64,000 nucleotides of DNA, taken from Escherichia coli. GTDB lineage: Bacteria > Pseudomonadota > Gammaproteobacteria > Enterobacterales > Enterobacteriaceae. Below are positions 8,475 through 64,000 of the stretch, piece after piece. The stretch lies in NCBI RefSeq assembly GCF_001677475.2, contig NZ_CP015229.1, one strand, 5' to 3'. Both the position numbers and the translations under genes were made by a program. The notes below the pieces were generated by a model. It was not told the origin of the DNA. It did not search any database and saw only the letters and a list, made by a program, of their open reading frames with translations. The stretch's first letter is position 1. Each line of letters begins with the position of its first letter.

Positions 8475-11400
8475 TGATTGAACGCGGTAAATTTCGCTCA
8501 CTGACGCTGATTAACTGGAACGGTTTTTTTGCCCGAACTTTTGACCTCGATGAGCTGGTTACGACGCTCTCCGGCGGTAACGGGGCGGGTAAATCCACCA
8601 CCATGGCGGCGTTCGTTACGGCGCTGATCCCCGACCTGACCCTGCTGCATTTCCGTAACACCACGGAAGCCGGGGCCACCAGCGGTTCGCGCGATAAAGG
8701 TCTGCACGGTAAGCTGAAAGCGGGTGTCTGTTATTCGATGCTCGACACCATTAACTCGCGCCACCAGCGCGTGGTGGTCGGTGTGCGTCTGCAACAGGTT
8801 GCCGGACGCGATCGTAAAGTGGATATCAAACCGTTTGCCATTCAGGGACTGCCGATGTCGGTGCAGCCGACACAGCTGGTGACCGAAACTCTGAACGAAC
8901 GCCAGGCGCGCGTGCTGCCGCTTAACGAGCTGAAAGACAAGCTCGAGGCGATGGAAGGCGTGCAGTTTAAACAGTTCAACTCCATTACCGATTACCACTC
9001 GCTGATGTTCGATCTGGGCATCATCGCGCGTCGTCTGCGCTCCGCATCTGACCGTAGCAAATTCTATCGTCTGATCGAAGCTTCGCTGTATGGCGGGATC
9101 TCCAGTGCCATTACCCGTTCTCTGCGCGACTACCTGTTGCCGGAAAACAGCGGAGTGCGTAAAGCGTTCCAGGACATGGAAGCGGCACTGCGTGAAAATC
9201 GCATGACGCTGGAAGCGATTCGTGTCACCCAGTCGGACCGTGACCTGTTTAAGCATCTGATCAGCGAAGCCACCAACTACGTGGCGGCGGACTACATGCG
9301 TCACGCCAACGAGCGCCGTGTCCATCTCGACAAAGCCCTGGAGTTTCGTCGCGAGCTACATACTTCGCGTCAGCAACTGGCGGCTGAGCAGTACAAACAC
9401 GTCGATATGGCGCGTGAGCTGGCAGAGCACAACGGTGCCGAAGGCGATCTGGAAGCGGATTATCAGGCGGCCAGCGATCACCTGAACCTGGTGCAAACCG
9501 CACTGCGTCAGCAGGAGAAGATCGAACGCTACGAAGCGGATCTCGATGAGCTGCAGATCCGTCTGGAAGAGCAAAACGAAGTGGTGGCAGAAGCCATCGA
9601 ACGCCAGGAAGAGAATGAGGCTCGTGCGGAAGCTGCCGAACTGGAAGTGGACGAGCTGAAAAGCCAACTTGCTGACTACCAGCAGGCGCTGGACGTCCAG
9701 CAAACGCGCGCGATCCAGTATAACCAGGCGATTGCTGCGCTTAATCGTGCCAAAGAACTGTGCCATCTGCCGGACTTAACCGCCGACAGCGCCGCCGAAT
9801 GGCTGGAAACCTTCCAGGCGAAAGAGCTGGAAGCGACTGAAAAAATGCTCTCTCTTGAGCAGAAAATGAGCATGGCGCAAACCGCGCACAGCCAGTTTGA
9901 GCAGGCTTATCAGCTGGTGGTGGCAATCAACGGCCCGCTGGCGCGTAACGAGGCGTGGGATGTCGCTCGCGAACTGCTGCGCGAAGGGGTCGATCAGCGT
10001 CACCTGGCAGAGCAGGTTCAGCCGTTGCGGATGCGCTTAAGCGAACTGGAACAGCGTCTGCGCGAACAGCAAGAAGCTGAGCGTCTGCTGGCAGATTTCT
10101 GCAAACGTCAGGGCAAGAATTTTGACATTGACGAGCTGGAAGCTCTGCATCAGGAGCTGGAAGCACGCATTGCCTCTCTTTCCGATAGTGTGTCTAACGC
10201 CCGTGAAGAGCGCATGGCACTGCGCCAGGAGCAGGAACAGCTGCAGTCTCGCATTCAGAGTTTGATGCAGCGTGCACCGGTTTGGCTGGCAGCGCAAAAC
10301 AGCCTCAACCAGTTGAGCGAACAGTGCGGCGAAGAGTTCTCTTCCAGCCAGGATGTCACCGAATATCTGCAACAGTTGCTGGAGCGTGAGCGCGAAGCCA
10401 TTGTTGAACGCGATGAAGTAGGCGCGCGCAAAAACGCCGTCGATGAAGAGATCGAACGTTTAAGCCAGCCAGGTGGTTCTGAAGACCAGCGTTTGAATGC
10501 GCTGGCGGAGCGTTTTGGCGGCGTGCTGCTGTCAGAAATTTATGACGACGTTAGCCTGGAAGATGCGCCGTACTTCTCGGCGCTGTATGGCCCGTCCCGC
10601 CACGCCATCGTGGTGCCAGATCTGTCACAGGTAACCGAACACCTGGAAGGTTTGACCGATTGCCCGGAAGATCTCTATCTGATCGAAGGGGATCCGCAGT
10701 CATTCGATGACAGCGTGTTCAGCGTTGATGAGCTGGAAAAAGCGGTGGTGGTGAAAATCGCCGATCGTCAGTGGCGTTACTCACGTTTTCCGGAAGTGCC
10801 GCTGTTTGGACGCGCGGCGCGCGAAAGCCGCATCGAAAGCCTCCATGCCGAGCGTGAAGTGCTTTCCGAACGCTTCGCCACGCTCTCCTTTGATGTACAG
10901 AAAACCCAGCGTCTGCATCAGGCGTTCAGCCGCTTTATCGGCAGCCATCTGGCGGTGGCGTTTGAGTCTGATCCGGAAGCCGAAATCCGTCAACTGAACA
11001 GCCGTCGCGTCGAACTGGAGCGGGCGTTGAGTAATCATGAAAATGATAACCAGCAGCAGCGTATTCAGTTTGAGCAGGCGAAAGAGGGTGTTACGGCGCT
11101 GAACCGCATTCTGCCGCGTCTCAACCTGTTGGCTGATGATAGCCTGGCAGATCGCGTCGATGAAATCCGCGAACGTCTGGATGAAGCCCAGGAAGCCGCG
11201 CGTTTTGTTCAGCAGTTTGGCAATCAACTGGCGAAACTGGAACCGATCGTTTCGGTATTGCAGAGCGACCCGGAACAGTTCGAACAGTTAAAAGAAGATT
11301 ACGCGTACTCTCAGCAGATGCAGCGCGATGCCCGTCAGCAGGCGTTTGCCCTGACGGAAGTGGTGCAGCGTCGTGCGCACTTTAGCTACTCTGACTCGGC

Positions 11401-29687: not shown

Positions 29688-29722
29688 CCCCCGGTTTGCA
29701 CACCGGGAATCCAGGAGAGTTC
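29688..29722 (+). promoter_or_regulatory. pyrD leader hairpin and Shine-Dalgarno
   Basis: cccgg-tttgcaca-ccggg hairpin immediately 5' of AGGAG SD and pyrD ATG; pyrimidine-dependent leader control is a recalled mechanism, not shown by the sequence. Confidence 0.5.
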
Positions 29723-30733
29723 ATGTACTACCCCTTCGTTCGTAAAGCCCTTTTCCAGCTCGATCCAGAGCGCGCTCATGAGTTTACTTTTCAGCAATTA
29801 CGCCGCATTACCGGAACACCGTTTGAAGCACTGGTGCGGCAGAAAGTGCCTGCGAAACCTGTTAACTGCATGGGCCTGACGTTTAAAAATCCGCTTGGTC
29901 TGGCAGCCGGTCTTGATAAAGACGGGGAGTGCATTGATGCGTTAGGTGCGATGGGATTTGGATCGATCGAGATCGGTACCGTCACGCCACGTCCACAGCC
30001 TGGTAATGACAAGCCGCGTCTCTTTCGTCTGGTAGATGCCGAAGGTTTGATCAACCGTATGGGCTTTAATAATCTTGGCGTTGATAACCTCGTAGAGAAC
30101 GTAAAAAAGGCCCATTATGACGGCGTCCTGGGTATTAACATCGGCAAAAATAAAGATACGCCAGTGGAGCAGGGCAAAGATGACTATCTGATTTGTATGG
30201 AAAAAATCTATGCCTATGCGGGATATATCGCTATCAATATTTCATCGCCAAATACCCCAGGATTACGCACTCTGCAATATGGTGAAGCGCTGGATGATCT
30301 CTTAACTGCGATTAAAAATAAGCAAAATGATTTGCAAGCGATGCACCATAAATATGTGCCGATCGCAGTGAAGATCGCGCCGGATCTTTCTGAAGAAGAA
30401 TTGATCCAGGTTGCCGATAGTTTAGTTCGCCATAATATTGATGGCGTTATTGCAACCAATACCACACTCGATCGTTCTCTGGTTCAGGGAATGAAAAATT
30501 GCGATCAAACCGGTGGCTTAAGTGGTCGTCCGCTTCAGTTAAAAAGCACCGAAATTATTCGCCGCTTGTCACTGGAATTAAACGGTCGCTTACCGATCAT
30601 CGGTGTTGGCGGCATCGACTCGGTTATCGCTGCGCGTGAAAAGATTGCTGCGGGTGCCTCACTGGTGCAAATTTATTCTGGTTTTATTTTTAAAGGTCCG
30701 CCGCTGATTAAAGAAATCGTTACCCATATCTAA
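29723..30733 (+). CDS. pyrD: Dihydroorotate dehydrogenase (quinone)
   Basis: ATG at 29723 ([21 protein letters not shown]), 336 aa. Confidence 0.9.
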
Positions 30734-32798: not shown

Positions 32799-34907
32799 AT
32801 GAATTCTCTGTTTGCCAGTACGGCCCGTGGGCTGGAAGAGCTGTTAAAAACTGAACTGGAAAACCTGGGGGCCGTTGAATGCCAGGTGGTTCAGGGTGGG
32901 GTCCATTTCAAGGGCGACACACGGCTTGTTTACCAGAGCCTGATGTGGAGCCGCCTGGCCTCGCGTATTATGTTGCCGCTGGGCGAGTGTAAGGTTTACA
33001 GCGATTTAGACCTCTATCTCGGTGTTCAGGCGATCAACTGGACAGAGATGTTTAATCCTGGCGCGACCTTCGCTGTCCACTTCAGTGGTTTGAATGACAC
33101 CATCCGCAACAGTCAGTACGGTGCGATGAAAGTGAAAGACGCGATTGTCGATGCTTTCACGCGGAAAAATCTGCCGCGTCCAAATGTTGATCGCGATGCG
33201 CCGGATATCCGCGTTAACGTCTGGCTGCATAAAGAAACTGCCAGTATCGCCCTTGATCTCAGTGGTGATGGTTTACATCTGCGTGGCTATCGCGATCGTG
33301 CTGGTATTGCGCCGATCAAAGAAACCCTGGCAGCCGCGATTGTTATGCGATCCGGCTGGCAGCCAGGAACACCGCTGCTCGATCCGATGTGTGGTTCCGG
33401 TACGTTGCTGATTGAAGCGGCGATGCTGGCGACCGATCGCGCACCAGGCTTGCACCGTGGGCGTTGGGGCTTTAGCGGCTGGGCGCAGCATGATGAAGCT
33501 ATCTGGCAGGAAGTGAAAGCGGAAGCGCAAACTCGCGCCCGCAAAGGCCTGGCTGAGTATAGCTCTCATTTTTACGGTTCGGACAGCGACGCACGGGTGA
33601 TTCAACGTGCGCGCACTAACGCCCGTCTTGCGGGGATTGGTGAACTGATCACCTTTGAGGTGAAAGATGTCGCGCAACTGACCAATCCGCTGCCGAAAGG
33701 GCCGTACGGTACAGTGTTGAGTAACCCGCCATACGGTGAACGTCTGGACAGCGAACCGGCGCTGATTGCGCTGCATAGTCTGCTGGGCCGAATCATGAAA
33801 AACCAGTTCGGTGGCTGGAATCTCTCTTTGTTTAGTGCCTCGCCGGATCTGCTCAGCTGCCTGCAGCTGCGTGCAGACAAACAGTACAAGGCGAAAAACG
33901 GCCCGCTGGACTGCGTACAGAAAAATTACCACGTTGCCGAAAGCACACCAGACAGCAAACCGGCAATGGTAGCGGAAGACTACGCCAACCGCCTGCGTAA
34001 GAACCTCAAAAAATTCGAGAAGTGGGCTCGCCAGGAAGGGATTGAATGTTACCGCCTGTATGACGCCGATCTGCCGGAATATAATGTTGCCGTTGACCGT
34101 TATGCCGACTGGGTGGTGGTGCAGGAGTATGCGCCGCCAAAAACTATTGATGCGCACAAAGCGCGTCAGCGTCTGTTCGATATTATCGCTGCAACCATTT
34201 CGGTACTGGGGATTGCGCCAAACAAACTGGTACTGAAAACCCGCGAACGCCAGAAGGGCAAAAACCAGTACCAGAAACTGGGCGAGAAGGGCGAGTTTCT
34301 TGAAGTTACCGAATATAACGCTCACTTGTGGGTGAACCTGACGGATTATCTCGATACTGGTCTGTTCCTCGATCACCGTATCGCCCGCCGTATGCTCGGT
34401 CAGATGAGCAAAGGCAAAGATTTCCTCAACCTGTTCTCTTATACCGGCAGTGCCACCGTGCATGCGGGATTAGGCGGTGCACGCAGCACCACCACCGTGG
34501 ATATGTCACGTACTTATCTGGAGTGGGCAGAACGCAACCTGCGTCTGAATGGCCTAACCGGGCGTGCGCATCGCCTGATTCAGGCCGATTGCCTGGCGTG
34601 GCTGCGTGAGGCAAATGAACAGTTCGATCTGATCTTTATCGATCCGCCAACCTTCTCTAACTCAAAACGAATGGAAGATGCGTTTGATGTTCAGCGCGAT
34701 CATCTGGCGCTGATGAAAGATTTGAAACGTCTGCTGCGTGCAGGCGGGACGATCATGTTCTCGAACAACAAACGTGGCTTCCGTATGGATCTCGACGGCC
34801 TGGCAAAACTGGGACTGAAAGCACAAGAAATTACGCAAAAAACGCTCTCCCAGGATTTCGCCCGTAACCGCCAGATCCACAACTGCTGGCTGATTACCGC
34901 AGCCTGA
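32799..34907 (+). CDS. rlmL: Bifunctional 23S rRNA methyltransferase RlmKL
   Basis: 702 aa; two SAM-MTase motifs (DPMCGSGT and later IDPPTF). Confidence 0.9.
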
Positions 34908-60639: not shown

Positions 60640-60831
60640 TTAAAGTCCTGCCGGGACTTCGTTATTATCCATGCGAATAACTTTATCGACCGGATAACAG
60701 TTACCGGGAATTTTTTGTTCTGCTGCGGCAGCCATGCATTCTTTCATTGAACCGTATAAGCCAGTCACCAGCTCAAGAGATTCGCCGGAAACAAGATAAA
60801 CTGTCAGAACGAGTGCAAATGTTGTATTCAT
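60640..60831 (-). CDS. Hypothetical small protein (63 aa) with hydrophobic N-terminal segment
   Basis: ATG preceded by AAGGA SD; start overlaps upstream stop (ATGA); sequence MNTTFALVLTVYLVSG suggests signal/TM segment. Confidence 0.55.
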   Translation of the reverse strand: MNTTFALVLTVYLVSGESLELVTGLYGSMKECMAAAAEQKIPGNCYPVDKVIRMDNNEVPAGL

Positions 60832-61016
60832 TGTTTATATCCTTTTTGCCGCAGGTCCAGACGAGCCAGCATTGAAGGAATGCATACTTCATTTAACAGG
60901 TCCTGCTCGAGTGTTCTCTGCTTAATGGCGTCTTCAATAAATGTTTTGTCTCCGGTGATAACGCCAATTTCGAAACGAAGTTCAGACGTACTGGCATTGC
61001 ATGATAACTTTTCCAT
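60828..61016 (-). CDS. Hypothetical small protein (62 aa)
   Basis: ATG preceded by GAGGA SD at 7-nt spacing; translationally coupled to downstream 63-aa gene. Confidence 0.55.
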   Translation of the reverse strand: MEKLSCNASTSELRFEIGVITGDKTFIEDAIKQRTLEQDLLNEVCIPSMLARLDLRQKGYKQ

Positions 61017-61033
61017 TATCGCGTCCTCAACAA

Positions 61034-61186
61034 TGAATTTTGTGATGCGGTGCCTGGTGCCTCCAGGTGACGTTAACCAGTTAACAATTAACGCCGGAGT
61101 ATTTCACGTTACGCCAGTAAAGGACCGCTTTACTGTTTTAACTGTTCCGCGTGCGCTTAGCCGCATTCACCGCATCACAAAATTCA
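61034..61186. repeat. 19-bp perfect inverted repeat (TGAATTTTGTGATGCGGTG / CACCGCATCACAAAATTCA) flanking a 115-bp hairpin-rich spacer
   Basis: Arms at 61034-61052 and 61168-61186; spacer holds nested hairpins cctgg-tgcct-ccagg, cgttaa...ttaacg and cagtaaag-gaccg-ctttactg; no ORF over 26 aa on the minus strand across 61017-61573. Confidence 0.7.
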
Positions 61187-61573
61187 CTTTAAAAAGGGCG
61201 GACATCAGCCAGCAATGAAAACTGATGCCGCCAAAGGTACCAATCAACATGGAGTGTTGCGGCGGGGTTGTCACTCAGGCGTATGGTCAACCTGACAACC
61301 CGGTGTCACCAGTGGGGGTAAGGAAAACCCCGCCATACTTACCGCCGCGCCATTTCGCGGAGTGCCACAACCGGAAGCGCACGGTCGACGAAAATTTAAC
61401 GACAGGCTATCTATGAACCATAAACCTCGCCGTGCGCTTTCGCGTTATGCCCTGACTTTTCAGGGAAATATCCTTTCAGTAAACTGTCAGTGCCGGATGT
61501 TCACCCGTGTCCGGCGCACGCACTCCACCTCACCCGTGGAGAACCCCTTAATTACCAACCCTCAGGAGAGTGA

Positions 61574-61807
61574 ATGTTAAAATCAACTCTTATTGCTAAA
61601 TGCCTTTATCAAAATCGCATGGTAAGCAGCATTTCAATAGGCGAGTCTGCAGTTAAAAGTATTTTCGAAGAGTTCTTTCCCGGGCATGATTTTAATAAAT
61701 GGAATACCAAATTACCGCCAGCAGTTTCAACGCGTATTCTGAAAGCAACTGAAAGAGCAAGTACAATTCGCGTTAACTATTTCATTAAAGATTTGTGGGA
61801 TCTTTGA
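61574..61807 (+). CDS. Hypothetical AT-rich small protein (77 aa), opposite orientation to neighbours
   Basis: ATG preceded by AGGAGA SD; low GC relative to surroundings; 3' end overlaps convergent 135-aa gene by 23 bp. Confidence 0.45.
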   Translation: MLKSTLIAKCLYQNRMVSSISIGESAVKSIFEEFFPGHDFNKWNTKLPPAVSTRILKATERASTIRVNYFIKDLWDL

Positions 61808-62192
61808 TATCCACAGAGCCTAAAGTATGTGCATATGGATGTGCTATTGTGCGCCCTCGCAGATTTGCATCATTTTCTAAATTCACTGAACGAAACAGGG
61901 CATCAACAAGGCTCTGTACAATGCAAAGGCAATCGAAGACTGTCGCTGTTTCTGTTTTGATTGATGAAAGAACATGGCCATTCACGCAAACAGAAATTAC
62001 CCGTTCATTAACATCGCTTTCCTGCTTTTGATTATCAGAACTATATAGCCCAGAAAAAGCATTGCGCACATTATGAACCATATTATCGATGGTTTCTTTT
62101 TCTACGGTACTCAGGTCAAGAGTCGCCAGTTGAGAACGAACTATATTCGCTGCCATTTCCTGGAATGGTACTGGTAAATCTTTAAATTCCAT
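61785..62192 (-). CDS. Hypothetical protein (135 aa; alternative start at 62204 gives 139 aa)
   Basis: ATG at 62192 with GAGG 6 nt upstream; upstream gene stop TGA lies within the ribosome-binding region, implying coupling; no recognisable motif. Confidence 0.6.
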   Translation of the reverse strand: MEFKDLPVPFQEMAANIVRSQLATLDLSTVEKETIDNMVHNVRNAFSGLYSSDNQKQESDVNERVISVCVNGHVLSSIKTETATVFDCLCIVQSLVDALFRSVNLENDANLRGRTIAHPYAHTLGSVDIKDPTNL

Positions 62193-62207
62193 CGTCAACC
62201 TCATCAG

Positions 62208-62423
62208 TCAGTGGTTTTCAATCTCTCGTGAAACGTTTAATGCCGCGCTTTTTGCCAGAGTGGTAATATCCAGCTCCGCTGACGCCAGTTCTTTAGAGAG
62301 GTGCTCTTTGTTGTTAGCAGCCTGTTTCAGGTCATTAATGGCGCGTATCTTCCCGAACATCCATTCGTAAATTTCATCATCGGTATAGCCTGGTGCGATG
62401 ATGGTGGGTTCTGGTTTCTGCAT
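62208..62423 (-). CDS. Hypothetical protein (71 aa)
   Basis: ATG at 62423 preceded by AAGGAG at 5-nt spacing (track ORF starts at an upstream GTG, 62462); first gene of a two-gene coupled unit. Confidence 0.6.
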   Translation of the reverse strand: MQKPEPTIIAPGYTDDEIYEWMFGKIRAINDLKQAANNKEHLSKELASAELDITTLAKSAALNVSREIENH

Positions 62424-62515
62424 GTCAGCTCCTTGTGGTTCGCATTGCCTGCTTTTAACCACGTCAGGCGAGGTGGTATCCTCTGAGGGGTCTGTTACTC
62501 GAGAGGAAATTGGTT

Positions 62516-62716
62516 ATGAATACAATCAAGTTTTCTTGCCCAGAATGTGGTGGCGAAGTCTTTGACACATCCTTTAAGCCGCAGGGCTCTGACAGTTTCG
62601 CGGGAGCCATCTGCAAAAATTGTGGTCACCTTGTAACTGAAGATGAGTCCTCGCAGTTCGATGACGAAATCGTTGATAATATCTTCGGCGCACTCACCAG
62701 AGATTTCCTGAAGTAA
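62516..62716 (+). CDS. Small zinc-ribbon protein (66 aa)
   Basis: CPEC-x19-CKNC motif; GAGAGGA SD 8 nt upstream of ATG; divergent from the 71-aa gene with 92-bp shared upstream region; fewer rare codons than the overlapping antisense ORF. Confidence 0.5.
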   Translation: MNTIKFSCPECGGEVFDTSFKPQGSDSFAGAICKNCGHLVTEDESSQFDDEIVDNIFGALTRDFLK

Positions 62717-63030
62717 AAGCGCATGCCGTTTAGTTACCGCTCTGATCATTCTTACTTGTCCGGTAATGGCGCTGACATCAGTATAAAGCGCCATTGCTGC
62801 TTCTTTGCCGATCCCAGGATGCCTTCCATTCTGATGTTTGACTTCGCCCACTGAGAAATCCTCTGTTTCCCCTTAACGCCGGGGTAGCGGAACAAAAACC
62901 TGCTGCATAGTTAAAGTTGAACCCTGCCGTCATGTTCTTACGCCTCGGGCTGGCTACTTAACCCCTGACCACTGCCTGGTAACTCGAAGTATTGCCCTGC
63001 GTTTTGTGGGGCGGGGTGGGTTAGTAAAAA

Positions 63031-63116: not shown

Positions 63117-63404
63117 TTAAGGTGTTACAGGGAACTGTCGGCGGGCGTGAACTACGCTAACAATTTCAATGCCTGAAATTGTCACGCGGTATAGAATTAT
63201 GTAATTGGGGTGAGCAACAATTTCACGCAAACCCGGAACTCTGTCGCTTGGCGGGTATAAATACGGATGCTCAGATAATGGCAGGACGCAAGTCCTTAAG
63301 CGTTTCCACAAACGTTCTGCCGCATCTATATCAAAACGAGCAATATAGCTAGTTATATCATCCAAGTCGGCATCTGCGCTTTCGAGCCATAAAACCGGTA
63401 ACAT
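63117..63404 (-). CDS. parE: ParE/RelE-family toxin
   Basis: 95 aa; family pattern (LPVLWLESADADLDDITSYIA ... PGLREIVAHPNYIILYRVTISGIEIVSVVHARR); start abuts antitoxin stop (TAAATG). Confidence 0.8.
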   Translation of the reverse strand: MLPVLWLESADADLDDITSYIARFDIDAAERLWKRLRTCVLPLSEHPYLYPPSDRVPGLREIVAHPNYIILYRVTISGIEIVSVVHARRQFPVTP

Positions 63405-63596
63405 TTACTGCTTGCTCCGTTCCTTGCGCATGTTAGCAAAGCGTTCAGCCATTCTGCGTTCAACTTCGTCATGTGGGATGGCTGGACGTGGATCAGCAAG
63501 GCTTGCGGCCACTTTTGCACGCAGCCATTCGTTATAACTATTTTCTTGCTCGATGGTTTCAAATTCAGAAACCATTGGTGAAAGGGCTGTGTTCAT
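63405..63596 (-). CDS. Small antitoxin (63 aa), PaaA-like partner of the ParE-like toxin
   Basis: ATG at 63596 with GAGG SD; immediately upstream of toxin; size and position as in recalled three-component paaR-paaA-parE modules. Confidence 0.7.
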   Translation of the reverse strand: MNTALSPMVSEFETIEQENSYNEWLRAKVAASLADPRPAIPHDEVERRMAERFANMRKERSKQ

Positions 63597-63631
63597 GGCG
63601 AACCTCGTTTTGTAAGTGCTGGTAATTCTGC

Positions 63632-64000
63632 CTAGGTAACTTTTTGTTGTGCTGCTAGCCACCTTGCAACTATACGATCCATTGTCTCTTTTTTTTCCTT
63701 CATATCTTTAAGTATTTGCTGTTGATCTTCCTCTGGAAATGCCTCAAATGTTTGAAGTAGCTCCTTTTGCTTAGGAGATATTTTTAATATATCCTGTGTT
63801 TTGTCTTCTTTTTCTTCATTTAATGGTAAGAAAAACCAATGTTGGGGAAAACCCGTTACTTCAGATAGTTTATCTAGATTAGCTGCTGTAGGGCTTGATA
63901 TACCACAAACCCACCTTTGGACGGATTGTTGAGCAATACCAATTCTGCGCGCAAGCTCTGCTTGACTCCAGCCTTTTTCTAATAGAAGCATCTTAATTCT
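63632..64000 (-). CDS. HTH XRE-family transcriptional regulator (PaaR-like), 5' end beyond window
   Basis: Helix-turn-helix signature GWSQAELARRIGIAQQSVQRW; frame open to window edge; 35 bp upstream of the antitoxin gene. Confidence 0.75.
   Translation of the reverse strand, partial: RIKMLLLEKGWSQAELARRIGIAQQSVQRWVCGISSPTAANLDKLSEVTGFPQHWFFLPLNEEKEDKTQDILKISPKQKELLQTFEAFPEEDQQQILKDMKEKKETMDRIVARWLAAQQKVT

Follow-up and report, generated by a model that had tools for sequence, protein, structure and literature searches.

What does a small, AT-rich gene do on the strand opposite to an early prophage operon? The question is raised by a 77-amino-acid (77-aa) open reading frame (ORF) at positions 61574..61807 (+), stop codon included, of a 64,000-nucleotide (nt) stretch of Escherichia coli DNA (contig NZ_CP015229.1 of assembly GCF_001677475.2), which we call the window. 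An initial annotation, made from the letters alone, had drawn attention to its ribosome-binding site, its low G+C content, its tail-to-tail overlap with a 135-aa gene on the other strand, and its presumed status as recently acquired prophage cargo. Our analysis argues that the ORF is a genuine protein-coding gene, that it forms a fixed two-gene module with its convergent neighbor, and that it shares the place and orientation of sieB in phages lambda and P22. The explanation that we favor, and to which we give about an even chance of being right, is that it is a prophage accessory gene occupying the "sieB slot," where it is opposed to the early-left (dicBF) operon.

Evidence for a protein-coding gene

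The ORF begins with ATG, and the Shine-Dalgarno sequence AGGAGA is present at 61564..61569 (+), 4 nt 5' of the start codon. The 77-aa protein matches phrog_10348 from end to end, with residues 1 to 77 aligned to profile positions 1 to 77 of 77 (E 7.9e-47), and it is annotated in RefSeq as WP_000920491.1 (hypothetical protein) in O145 (O145:H28), O157, and O55 genomes and also in phage Evi. The gene was found in 649 of 5426 complete E. coli genomes, or about 12%, including prophages of O157:H7, O55:H7, O145, O111, and O121. In 597 of these genomes its identity is at least 99%, whereas identity across the surrounding 1.5 kb is no more than about 89%. A tblastn search of 50,697 phage records located the family in 12 E. 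coli records only.

A search for homologs, which the initial annotation had suggested as a check, also returned conserved relatives in other genera. Proteins with 53 to 71% identity occur in Klebsiella, Salmonella, Dickeya, Xenorhabdus, Yersinia, Serratia, Morganella, Proteus, and Providencia; nearly all have 77 to 78 aa, 20 of 25 homologs are exactly 77 aa long, the others differ mainly through upstream start calls, and none has internal insertions or deletions. A profile search of 1.84 billion representative proteins recovered 160 clusters, mostly of 74 to 80 aa, down to 25 to 30% identity. Across an alignment of 41 distinct protein sequences, 21 residues are invariant, and the family has invariant termini, MLKSTLIAKCL at the N terminus and FIKDLW at the C terminus. 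In the 41 distinct DNA sequences, entropy is highest at third codon positions (1.10, versus 0.65 and 0.44), the ratio of nonsynonymous to synonymous polymorphism (pN/pS) in the 77-aa frame is 0.345, and all five other frames carry stops in every sequence. E. coli alleles alone differ at eight nonsynonymous and six synonymous sites, a normalized ratio of 0.35.

AlphaFold2, given a 41-sequence alignment, returned a five-helix model with a mean predicted local distance difference test (pLDDT) score of 97.7 and a predicted template modeling (pTM) score of 0.87. The product is thus predicted to be a compact, all-helical five-helix protein, with an isoelectric point of 9.5 for the window allele, and it has no detectable relative of known function. 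Scans of both the 77-aa protein and its convergent partner against Pfam, NCBIfam, and PADLOC gave no meaningful match, and sequence-profile searches of the PDB gave none for either family. A ROS_MUCR match of the partner was rejected as subthreshold (16 bits against a cutoff of 25.4). Literature searches on the ORF, PPompW, ECs2282, and dicBF in O157 found no description of the 77-aa gene.

Two minor observations concern the distribution of the gene. A 13-nt tandem duplication (TTTCGAAGAGTAC) breaks the frame after about codon 35 in a minority of E. coli copies, which are occasional pseudogenes (L077, 4001-4244, and L078, 1420-1663, in our collection of loci, and hit H80, NZ_CP025847). Also, an E. 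coli-type copy with 97% identity lies on a 3.3-kb contig (JAIJJM010000357.1, locus L008) binned as a Collinsella sp. metagenome-assembled genome; this contig is most likely misbinned Enterobacterales prophage DNA.

A fixed module of two convergent genes

The partner gene occupies 61785..62192 (-) and encodes 135 aa when read from the ATG at 62192, the start used by RefSeq for homologs, or 139 aa from the ATG at 62204. It belongs to phrog_1363, with PHROG matches that are split into N- and C-terminal parts. Its stop codon, TAA at 61785-61787, lies within the 3' end of the 77-aa gene, so that the two coding regions share 23 bp at 61785..61807, tail to tail, as the initial annotation had described. 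The conserved part of the partner is a C-terminal domain of about 75 aa (61785-62009, minus strand; consensus ..VNG..V..I.T..AVAADY....L..LE.EAN.SGKT..H..), and this domain adjoins every 77-aa gene. The N-terminal 60 aa or so are variable or mosaic and in E. coli are unrelated to other N-terminal extensions. The extensions appear interchangeable, with a YdfC-like segment in Yersinia-type loci and a ClpX-type zinc finger in one locus. In the latter case (L073), the domain is fused to a C4 zinc finger of PF06689 (E 7.5e-9); elsewhere (L006/L080/L082 and L104/L131), its fusion partners, whether N- or C-terminal, are the YdfC-like segment or 99-aa or 116-aa proteins that are separate genes in other places.

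The association between the two genes is strict. In the first distant loci, from Dickeya, Serratia, Yersinia, and Xenorhabdus, a minus-strand partner of 77 to 191 aa ends exactly 23 bp inside the 77-aa gene, and three remote loci with homologs at 38 to 42% identity retain both the partner and the 23-bp overlap. Among 90 loci of the 77-aa gene, the two genes are convergent in all 90, a hidden Markov model of the partner domain matches the convergent ORF in all 90, and the overlap measures 23 bp in 83 of them and 26 bp in the remaining 7. A search of IMG/VR from the partner side found a convergently overlapping 77-aa family gene in 45 of 50 loci, and one further locus was truncated. The partner stands without the 77-aa gene in 4 of the 49 informative loci, where a different counter-oriented gene takes its place. 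Seen from the 77-aa gene, linkage is thus complete, and seen from the partner it is nearly so; the 77-aa gene and its convergent partner are a fixed two-gene module.

The constancy of the overlap has a simpler cause than selection for its length. Where the 77-aa gene has its invariant Phe-Ile(-Lys) codons (TTY ATH AAR), the antisense strand reads TGA or TAA in the frame of the partner, so that the partner is forced to terminate there, while the last six residues of the partner change freely with synonymous sites of the 77-aa gene. We therefore rejected the idea that the overlap is selected for its length; it is a by-product, and the conserved feature is the convergent, abutting arrangement. 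By itself, the constant 23-bp overlap is no argument for mutual antisense interference. The geometry would nevertheless permit such interference, by analogy with the phage precedents OOP/cII and sas/sieB.

An insertion in a dicBF-type early-left operon

The window is occupied, from about 56.8 kb to its end, by the left arm of a lambdoid prophage that adjoins yccA. Its minus strand encodes an integrase, an excisionase, an 816-aa exonuclease, a DUF1482 protein, DicB (60831-61016, minus strand; PF05358, E 4e-37), and DicF, followed by a long untranslated leader, the 135-aa partner, a YdfC-like gene, a 99/118-aa ORF, and a PaaA2/ParE pair with a helix-turn-helix (HTH) regulator. The DicF small RNA of this early-left operon maps to 61196..61245 (-), where it matches Rfam RF00039 at 44.1 bits (gathering score 48; E 3e-7). 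An early-left operon of this kind, equivalent to that of the early-left promoter (PL), is known from Qin, where the order is ydfABC-dicF-dicB-ydfD (PMC5069750, PMC10448788). The partner is co-oriented with the operon (PL/dicBp type) and is often its first gene, standing directly downstream of a cI-like repressor and PL-type operators in four loci (L003, L004, L006, and L007). The 77-aa gene points against the operon and is antisense to the long leader that early-left transcripts cross to reach dicF and dicB; the initial annotation was thus right to treat it as a gene on the opposite strand.

Comparison with phage Tritos, which has a Qin-like order of three small genes, leader, DicF, and DicB, delimits the insertion. 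Homology extends to about position 61562 and stops just before the sequence CAGGAG; in Tritos, the stop of the ydfC-like gene lies about 20 nt from the shared leader, where the window instead holds a two-gene, low-GC cassette at 61563..62207, between its ydfC-like gene and the DicF leader. The Shine-Dalgarno sequence of the 77-aa gene is among the first bases of this insert. A second comparison, with an O145 prophage and phage Evi, revealed a block (61320-62100) of 95 to 100% identity, beyond which identity falls to 48 to 77% in the ydfC-like gene and in the part of the partner gene that encodes its N terminus. This mosaic pattern indicates that the mobile unit is the 77-aa gene together with the conserved domain of the partner.

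G+C content is 35.9% in the 77-aa ORF, 40.2% in the partner gene, and 39.4% across the two-gene cassette, compared with 54.8% in the 370 nt upstream of the ORF and, when the window is divided into prophage and chromosome, 46.2% and 51.6%, respectively. The low G+C content claimed by the initial annotation is thus real, although the island takes in the partner gene and not the 77-aa ORF alone. Its description of the ORF as recently acquired cargo holds in part: the low-GC block is inserted relative to Qin-like phages such as Tritos, in an accessory gene ("moron") slot like that of sieB in lambda and P22. The inserted unit, however, comprises both genes, and recency is not borne out, as the 77-aa gene and its partner are an old module with 38 to 64% protein identity across Enterobacterales and metagenomic phages.

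Two side observations concern the DicF region. The DicF copy of the window is divergent, with 55 to 59% identity over 61201-61260 to the copies of the O145 prophage and phage Evi, and an STnc100-like match of 38 bits, which is subthreshold, lies between DicF and dicB at 61039-61184 (-).

Upstream DNA shared with sieB

Outside E. coli, about 70 nt 5' of the ATG of the 77-aa gene are conserved as DNA across genera, in the pattern ..GCCTG..TTTTCACCAC.TCAGGC..GGTGGTATCTTGG..CACAACCAAGAAG..ATG. This upstream cassette ends 33 to 37 nt from the start codon and contains two interleaved dyads, GCCTG/CAGGC and CCAC/GTGG, which form standard pairs in 93.5% of cells and have compensatory changes at three positions; slid registers pair in 23 to 48% of cells. 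None of 500 shuffles reached the observed percentage of cells paired, the number of cells changed on both sides, or the covariation score. To judge from its letters, the cassette reads as a sigma-70 promoter (-35 TTCACC, a 16-nt spacer, and an extended -10 TGgTATCTT) with a short leader.

The same cassette precedes many other genes. A scan of IMG/VR with its core pattern found at least 122 instances, and among the matches listed, 118 of 122 have an ORF start 26 to 38 nt downstream and 102 of 122 have long flanking ORFs mainly on the other strand. No fewer than 20 unrelated families are represented among the ORFs that follow, with the 77-aa family making up only 13 or 14 of the matches listed. 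Likewise among those listed, the partner domain appears only beside the 77-aa gene (14 of 14; 14 of 122 instances have the partner nearby), and the 77-aa gene never appears without the partner (14 of 14). In sequence and surroundings, the cassette has the look of a portable unit, promoter plus leader, that would serve cargo genes of prophages.

Copies of the cassette were noted in the window itself (62447-62482, plus strand), in L104, L122, L128, and L134, and in at least 120 IMG/VR loci (L150 onward), and some phages carry two. The gap next to cI in phage ST64B was checked for the cassette and the module, and neither was found. Two proposals for the function of the cassette were rejected: that the partner is its regulator, since the partner is nearby in only 14 of 122 instances among the matches listed, and that the dyads are phage repressor operators, since the operators of L004 and L006 look different.

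The link to sieB comes from lambda and P22. Lambda 34394-34428 and P22 29650-29684 are 94 to 97% identical to the cassette over 35 nt. In the P22 record, the sieB promoter is at 29690-29720, the sieB RNA starts at 29727, sieB occupies 29758-30336 (+), and gene 24, the N analog, lies convergent with it at 30357-30659 (-). The 77-aa gene likewise follows the first PL gene, converges with it on the strand opposite the early-left operon, and in other genera stands behind sieB-type upstream DNA; a transcript in the PL direction is necessarily antisense to either gene. The 77-aa gene thus shares the place and orientation that sieB has relative to N in lambda and to gene 24 in P22.

The likeness does not extend to the genes themselves. 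The 77-aa protein has no sequence or fold similarity to SieB, and P22 sieB encodes a product of 192 aa, as opposed to a predicted soluble helical protein of 77 aa. The sieB and gene 24 coding regions are 20 nt apart, whereas those of the 77-aa gene and its partner overlap by 23 bp, and the partner is not an N-type antiterminator. The shared segment also differs at its end: in lambda and P22 it ends GGTGGTTCTC, with the ATG 74 nt away and, in P22, the mapped promoter 6 to 36 nt downstream of it, while cargo cassettes, including those of the 77-aa gene in other genera, end GGTGGTATCTT with TGgTATCTT and have the ATG 33 to 37 nt away. The latter end and spacing would fit TGgTATCTT as an extended -10 element with TTCACC, 16 nt upstream, as the -35 element. 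Finally, the E. coli copy of the 77-aa gene lacks the canonical upstream segment and has at most a relic of it.

A proposed accessory gene in the sieB slot

How might a gene in this position work? We propose that the 77-aa gene is a moron transcribed on its own, against a repressed early-left operon; independent transcription of this kind would imply expression in the lysogen, as for SieB. SieB is made from the P22 prophage (PMC10461980), and genes that lie antisense to lytic genes and have their own promoter are transcribed in lysogens, as exemplified by STMMW_20121 of ST64B (PMC7067206). When PL fires upon induction or infection, leftward transcription would run antisense through the 77-aa gene and should lower its expression by collision and by an RNA duplex with its 3' end. 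Comparably, in P22, an antisense RNA, sas, switches translation of the sieB message (PMC12197685). Conversely, transcription of the 77-aa gene would oppose leaky read-through toward DicF and DicB. Among possible roles of the protein, the likeliest class is a host- or phage-directed accessory one, e.g., the exclusion of other phages.

Several observations weigh against this explanation. The promoter activity of the cassette is read from its sequence, and the sieB promoter mapped in P22 is not part of the homologous segment but falls downstream of it. The cassette upstream of the 77-aa gene has degenerated in all E. coli copies, that of the window included, and has no -10 element. A consensus promoter scan upstream of 61574 found no site, and the best sigma-70-like site there, at 61457-61485, is weak, with 8 of 12 matches. 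No intrinsic terminator was found after 61807 in a scan of 60900-62600, so that one classic moron feature is missing. Also, the orientation is not invariable. In one metagenomic phage (L094, 2208-4105), the module lies the other way round with respect to the YfdP/DUF2303 early genes, such that a 76-aa family gene is co-oriented with its neighbors and the partner is the only reversed gene; counter-orientation to the operon is therefore not universal.

Upstream of the 77-aa gene in the window, the canonical cassette has been replaced by DicF-leader sequence, and at most a degenerate trace is left. The candidate relic (GTGCCGGATGTTCACCCGTGTCCGGCGC) at 61490..61517 (+) has 22/29 identity to the Serratia-type element and does not contain the -10-like TATCTT; 5 of 500 shuffles score as high, and the same sequence occurs in Tritos, which lacks the 77-aa gene. 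On the other side, the Shine-Dalgarno sequence of the E. coli gene is stronger than in its relatives, and the gene remains under purifying selection. Expression of the E. coli copy is the weakest step of the explanation.

Alternative explanations

The alternative that survives best, a real possibility although we would not wager on it, is that the two genes form an exclusion and self-immunity pair. Under this model, the 77-aa protein is made in the lysogen and harms incoming phages or the infected cell, while the partner, expressed first from PL, protects the lytic growth of the phage itself, in the way that Esc and sas act for SieB; the two proteins or their pathways would interact. The asymmetric linkage described above, in which the 77-aa gene never lacks its partner while the partner can stand alone, is typical of pairs of a harmful gene and an antidote, although physical overlap alone would keep the genes together. 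The model also accommodates the partner being the first PL gene in several phages, the location of the 77-aa gene in the same slot as sieB, and the prediction that the most conserved stretch of the partner (LE.EAN..GKT..H) is disordered alone, like a binding tail. Nevertheless, a linker-fused AlphaFold2 run on the partner domain and the 77-aa protein, with a 28-row paired alignment, left the tail unordered (pLDDT below 50 for residues 42-74; mean 67; pTM 0.47) and gave no support for a complex. Charge complementarity was seen only in E. coli and is not consistent across the family, and the pair has no PADLOC match.

A bolder version joins two claims: that the module is an unrecognized exclusion and self-immunity pair, an analog of SieB/Esc with a fold that has no solved relative, and that the sieB upstream segment is a general plug-in expression socket for more than 20 interchangeable small cargo genes in Enterobacterales temperate phages. 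We regard this combination as doubtful, though worth stating.

An unlikely alternative places the function in transcription and not in the protein. A promoter pointing against PL, just after its first gene, could act as a brake that limits leaky early-left transcription toward the toxic DicF, DicB, and Kil, with the ORF merely carried along. Such a brake would suit the antisense position of the 77-aa gene in the leader that transcripts from dicBp or PL pass on their way to dicF and dicB, and it would suit the many different cargo ORFs found in the same counter-oriented position behind the same cassette; interference between convergent promoters and antisense control are, moreover, established in lambdoid phages (OOP/cII, paQ, and sas). 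However, the protein is clearly under purifying selection, with its 21 invariant residues and very confident fold, which makes a purely transcriptional role unlikely, and the family keeps a length of 74 to 80 aa even at 25 to 30% identity. Furthermore, the ORF of the E. coli copy is intact and has a stronger Shine-Dalgarno sequence even though the canonical cassette is lost.

We find it still more improbable that the 77-aa gene is an early lytic or antidefense gene, expressed in infection rather than in the lysogen. Lambdoid early-left regions are rich in genes for host takeover and antidefense, such as ral beside sieB, the gene in L094 is co-oriented with its neighbors, and the two dyads of the cassette, with their compensatory changes, could be an operator for a phage regulator. 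However, the same phages have operators that look unlike those dyads, in nearly all loci the gene runs against the early operon, and sieB, the only characterized gene behind the homologous upstream segment, is expressed from the prophage. Lastly, that the ORF is not a gene but a chance AT-rich frame antisense to an untranslated leader is effectively refuted: although a functional annotation was found nowhere and pipelines can propagate spurious small ORFs, the substitutions are of the coding type, every other frame has stops, the length is kept across genera with no internal insertions or deletions, and the predicted fold is highly confident.

Comparison with other known systems

The favored explanation, that of an accessory gene in the sieB slot, would make the 77-aa gene a moron, and it resembles prophage morons (PMC3594210, PMC7067206) in several respects. 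It was inserted between genes that are adjacent in related phages, its base composition is unlike that of its neighbors, its orientation is opposite to that of the lytic genes, and in most genera it has a promoter-like cassette of its own, as read from the sequence. It differs from them in that the insertion consists of two convergent genes with no terminator found, and in that the 77-aa gene is tightly and anciently linked to one partner and is not freely mobile.

Overlap of convergent transcripts at their 3' ends is a feature of lambda OOP RNA and cII and of type I toxin-antitoxin pairs of the txpA/RatA type. The 77-aa gene and its partner are likewise convergent units with overlapping 3' ends and a potential RNA duplex. 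In contrast to those systems, both genes are conserved and protein coding, and neither is a small hydrophobic toxin or a noncoding RNA. A type II toxin-antitoxin pair is a poor comparison as well, because the two genes are not a cotranscribed operon but converge in all 90 loci, and neither protein has a Pfam or PADLOC match to type II families; a ParE/PaaA2 pair in the same window (63117-63662) was detected and served as a positive control. With regard to the Qin-type dicBF operon, the minus strand of the window carries, in this order, DicF, DicB, the DUF1482 gene, and the YdfC-like gene, but the 77-aa gene is on the other strand, is absent from the Qin-like Tritos, and is not a member of the operon.

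In summary of its status, the 77-aa gene is already annotated, though only as a hypothetical protein and an unnamed PHROG. It is neither a homolog of SieB nor a known toxin or antitoxin, and it belongs to no PADLOC system. Relative to the literature searched, the strict two-gene module, the lack of any relative in fold, and the wide recurrence of the sieB upstream segment before many cargo families appear to be new.

The placement in the sieB slot yields a testable hypothesis, namely, that the gene is expressed in the lysogen, that it affects other phages, and that the partner relieves this effect; a confident structural model is at hand. Because its transcription would be antisense in the DicF/DicB leader, the gene could also set the leakiness of toxic division inhibitors in pathogenic strains. 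The cassette common to lambda and P22 sieB and to many unrelated small genes could serve as a sequence tag in the search for prophage accessory genes, and this side result may be more useful than the 77-aa gene itself.

Other features of the prophage region

The canonical copy of the sieB-type cassette in the window (GCCTG..TTTTAACCACGTCAGGCGAGGTGGTATCCT; 62447..62482, plus strand) does not precede the 77-aa gene but sits 33 nt 5' of the ATG of a second counter-oriented ORF. It was identified by an exact match to the core pattern at 62459-62480, of which 0.03 are expected by chance, and it aligns with the upstream DNA of lambda and P22 sieB. The ORF that follows, at 62516..62716 (+), would encode a 66-aa CxxC zinc-ribbon protein of the ECs_2282 family (NCBIfam NF047912; score 57 bits, cutoff 37). 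It lies wholly inside, and antisense to, a minus-strand 99/118-aa ORF at 62498-62851 (phrog_21318) that RefSeq annotates. Both frames are open in homologs of 56 to 63% identity (L104 and L105), with pN/pS of 0.38 to 0.56 in the zinc-ribbon frame and 0.55 to 0.72 in the antisense frame. In a common E. coli allele, present in 13 loci, the zinc-ribbon ORF is interrupted by a stop at codon 14.

At 63117-63991 (-), a three-gene module separates the early genes from the immunity region. It comprises an HTH regulator (PF01381), an antitoxin of the PaaA2 type (PF21217, E 2e-20), and a toxin of the ParE family (PF05016, E 1e-16), and we take it to resemble paaR2-paaA2-parE2 of O157 prophages. Finally, the PL-type operators and the first early-left gene of Serratia, Yersinia, and Salmonella phages have between them a conserved, GC-rich leader of some 70 nt (..AGCGAACAGGCAGGACGCCCACGAAGTAGCCGCC..GGATGATTCGCT.. 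on the PL strand; L004, 5470-5560; L006, 5800-5900; and ST64B, L272, about 9870-9960). This leader might be an antitermination site of the nut or put kind.

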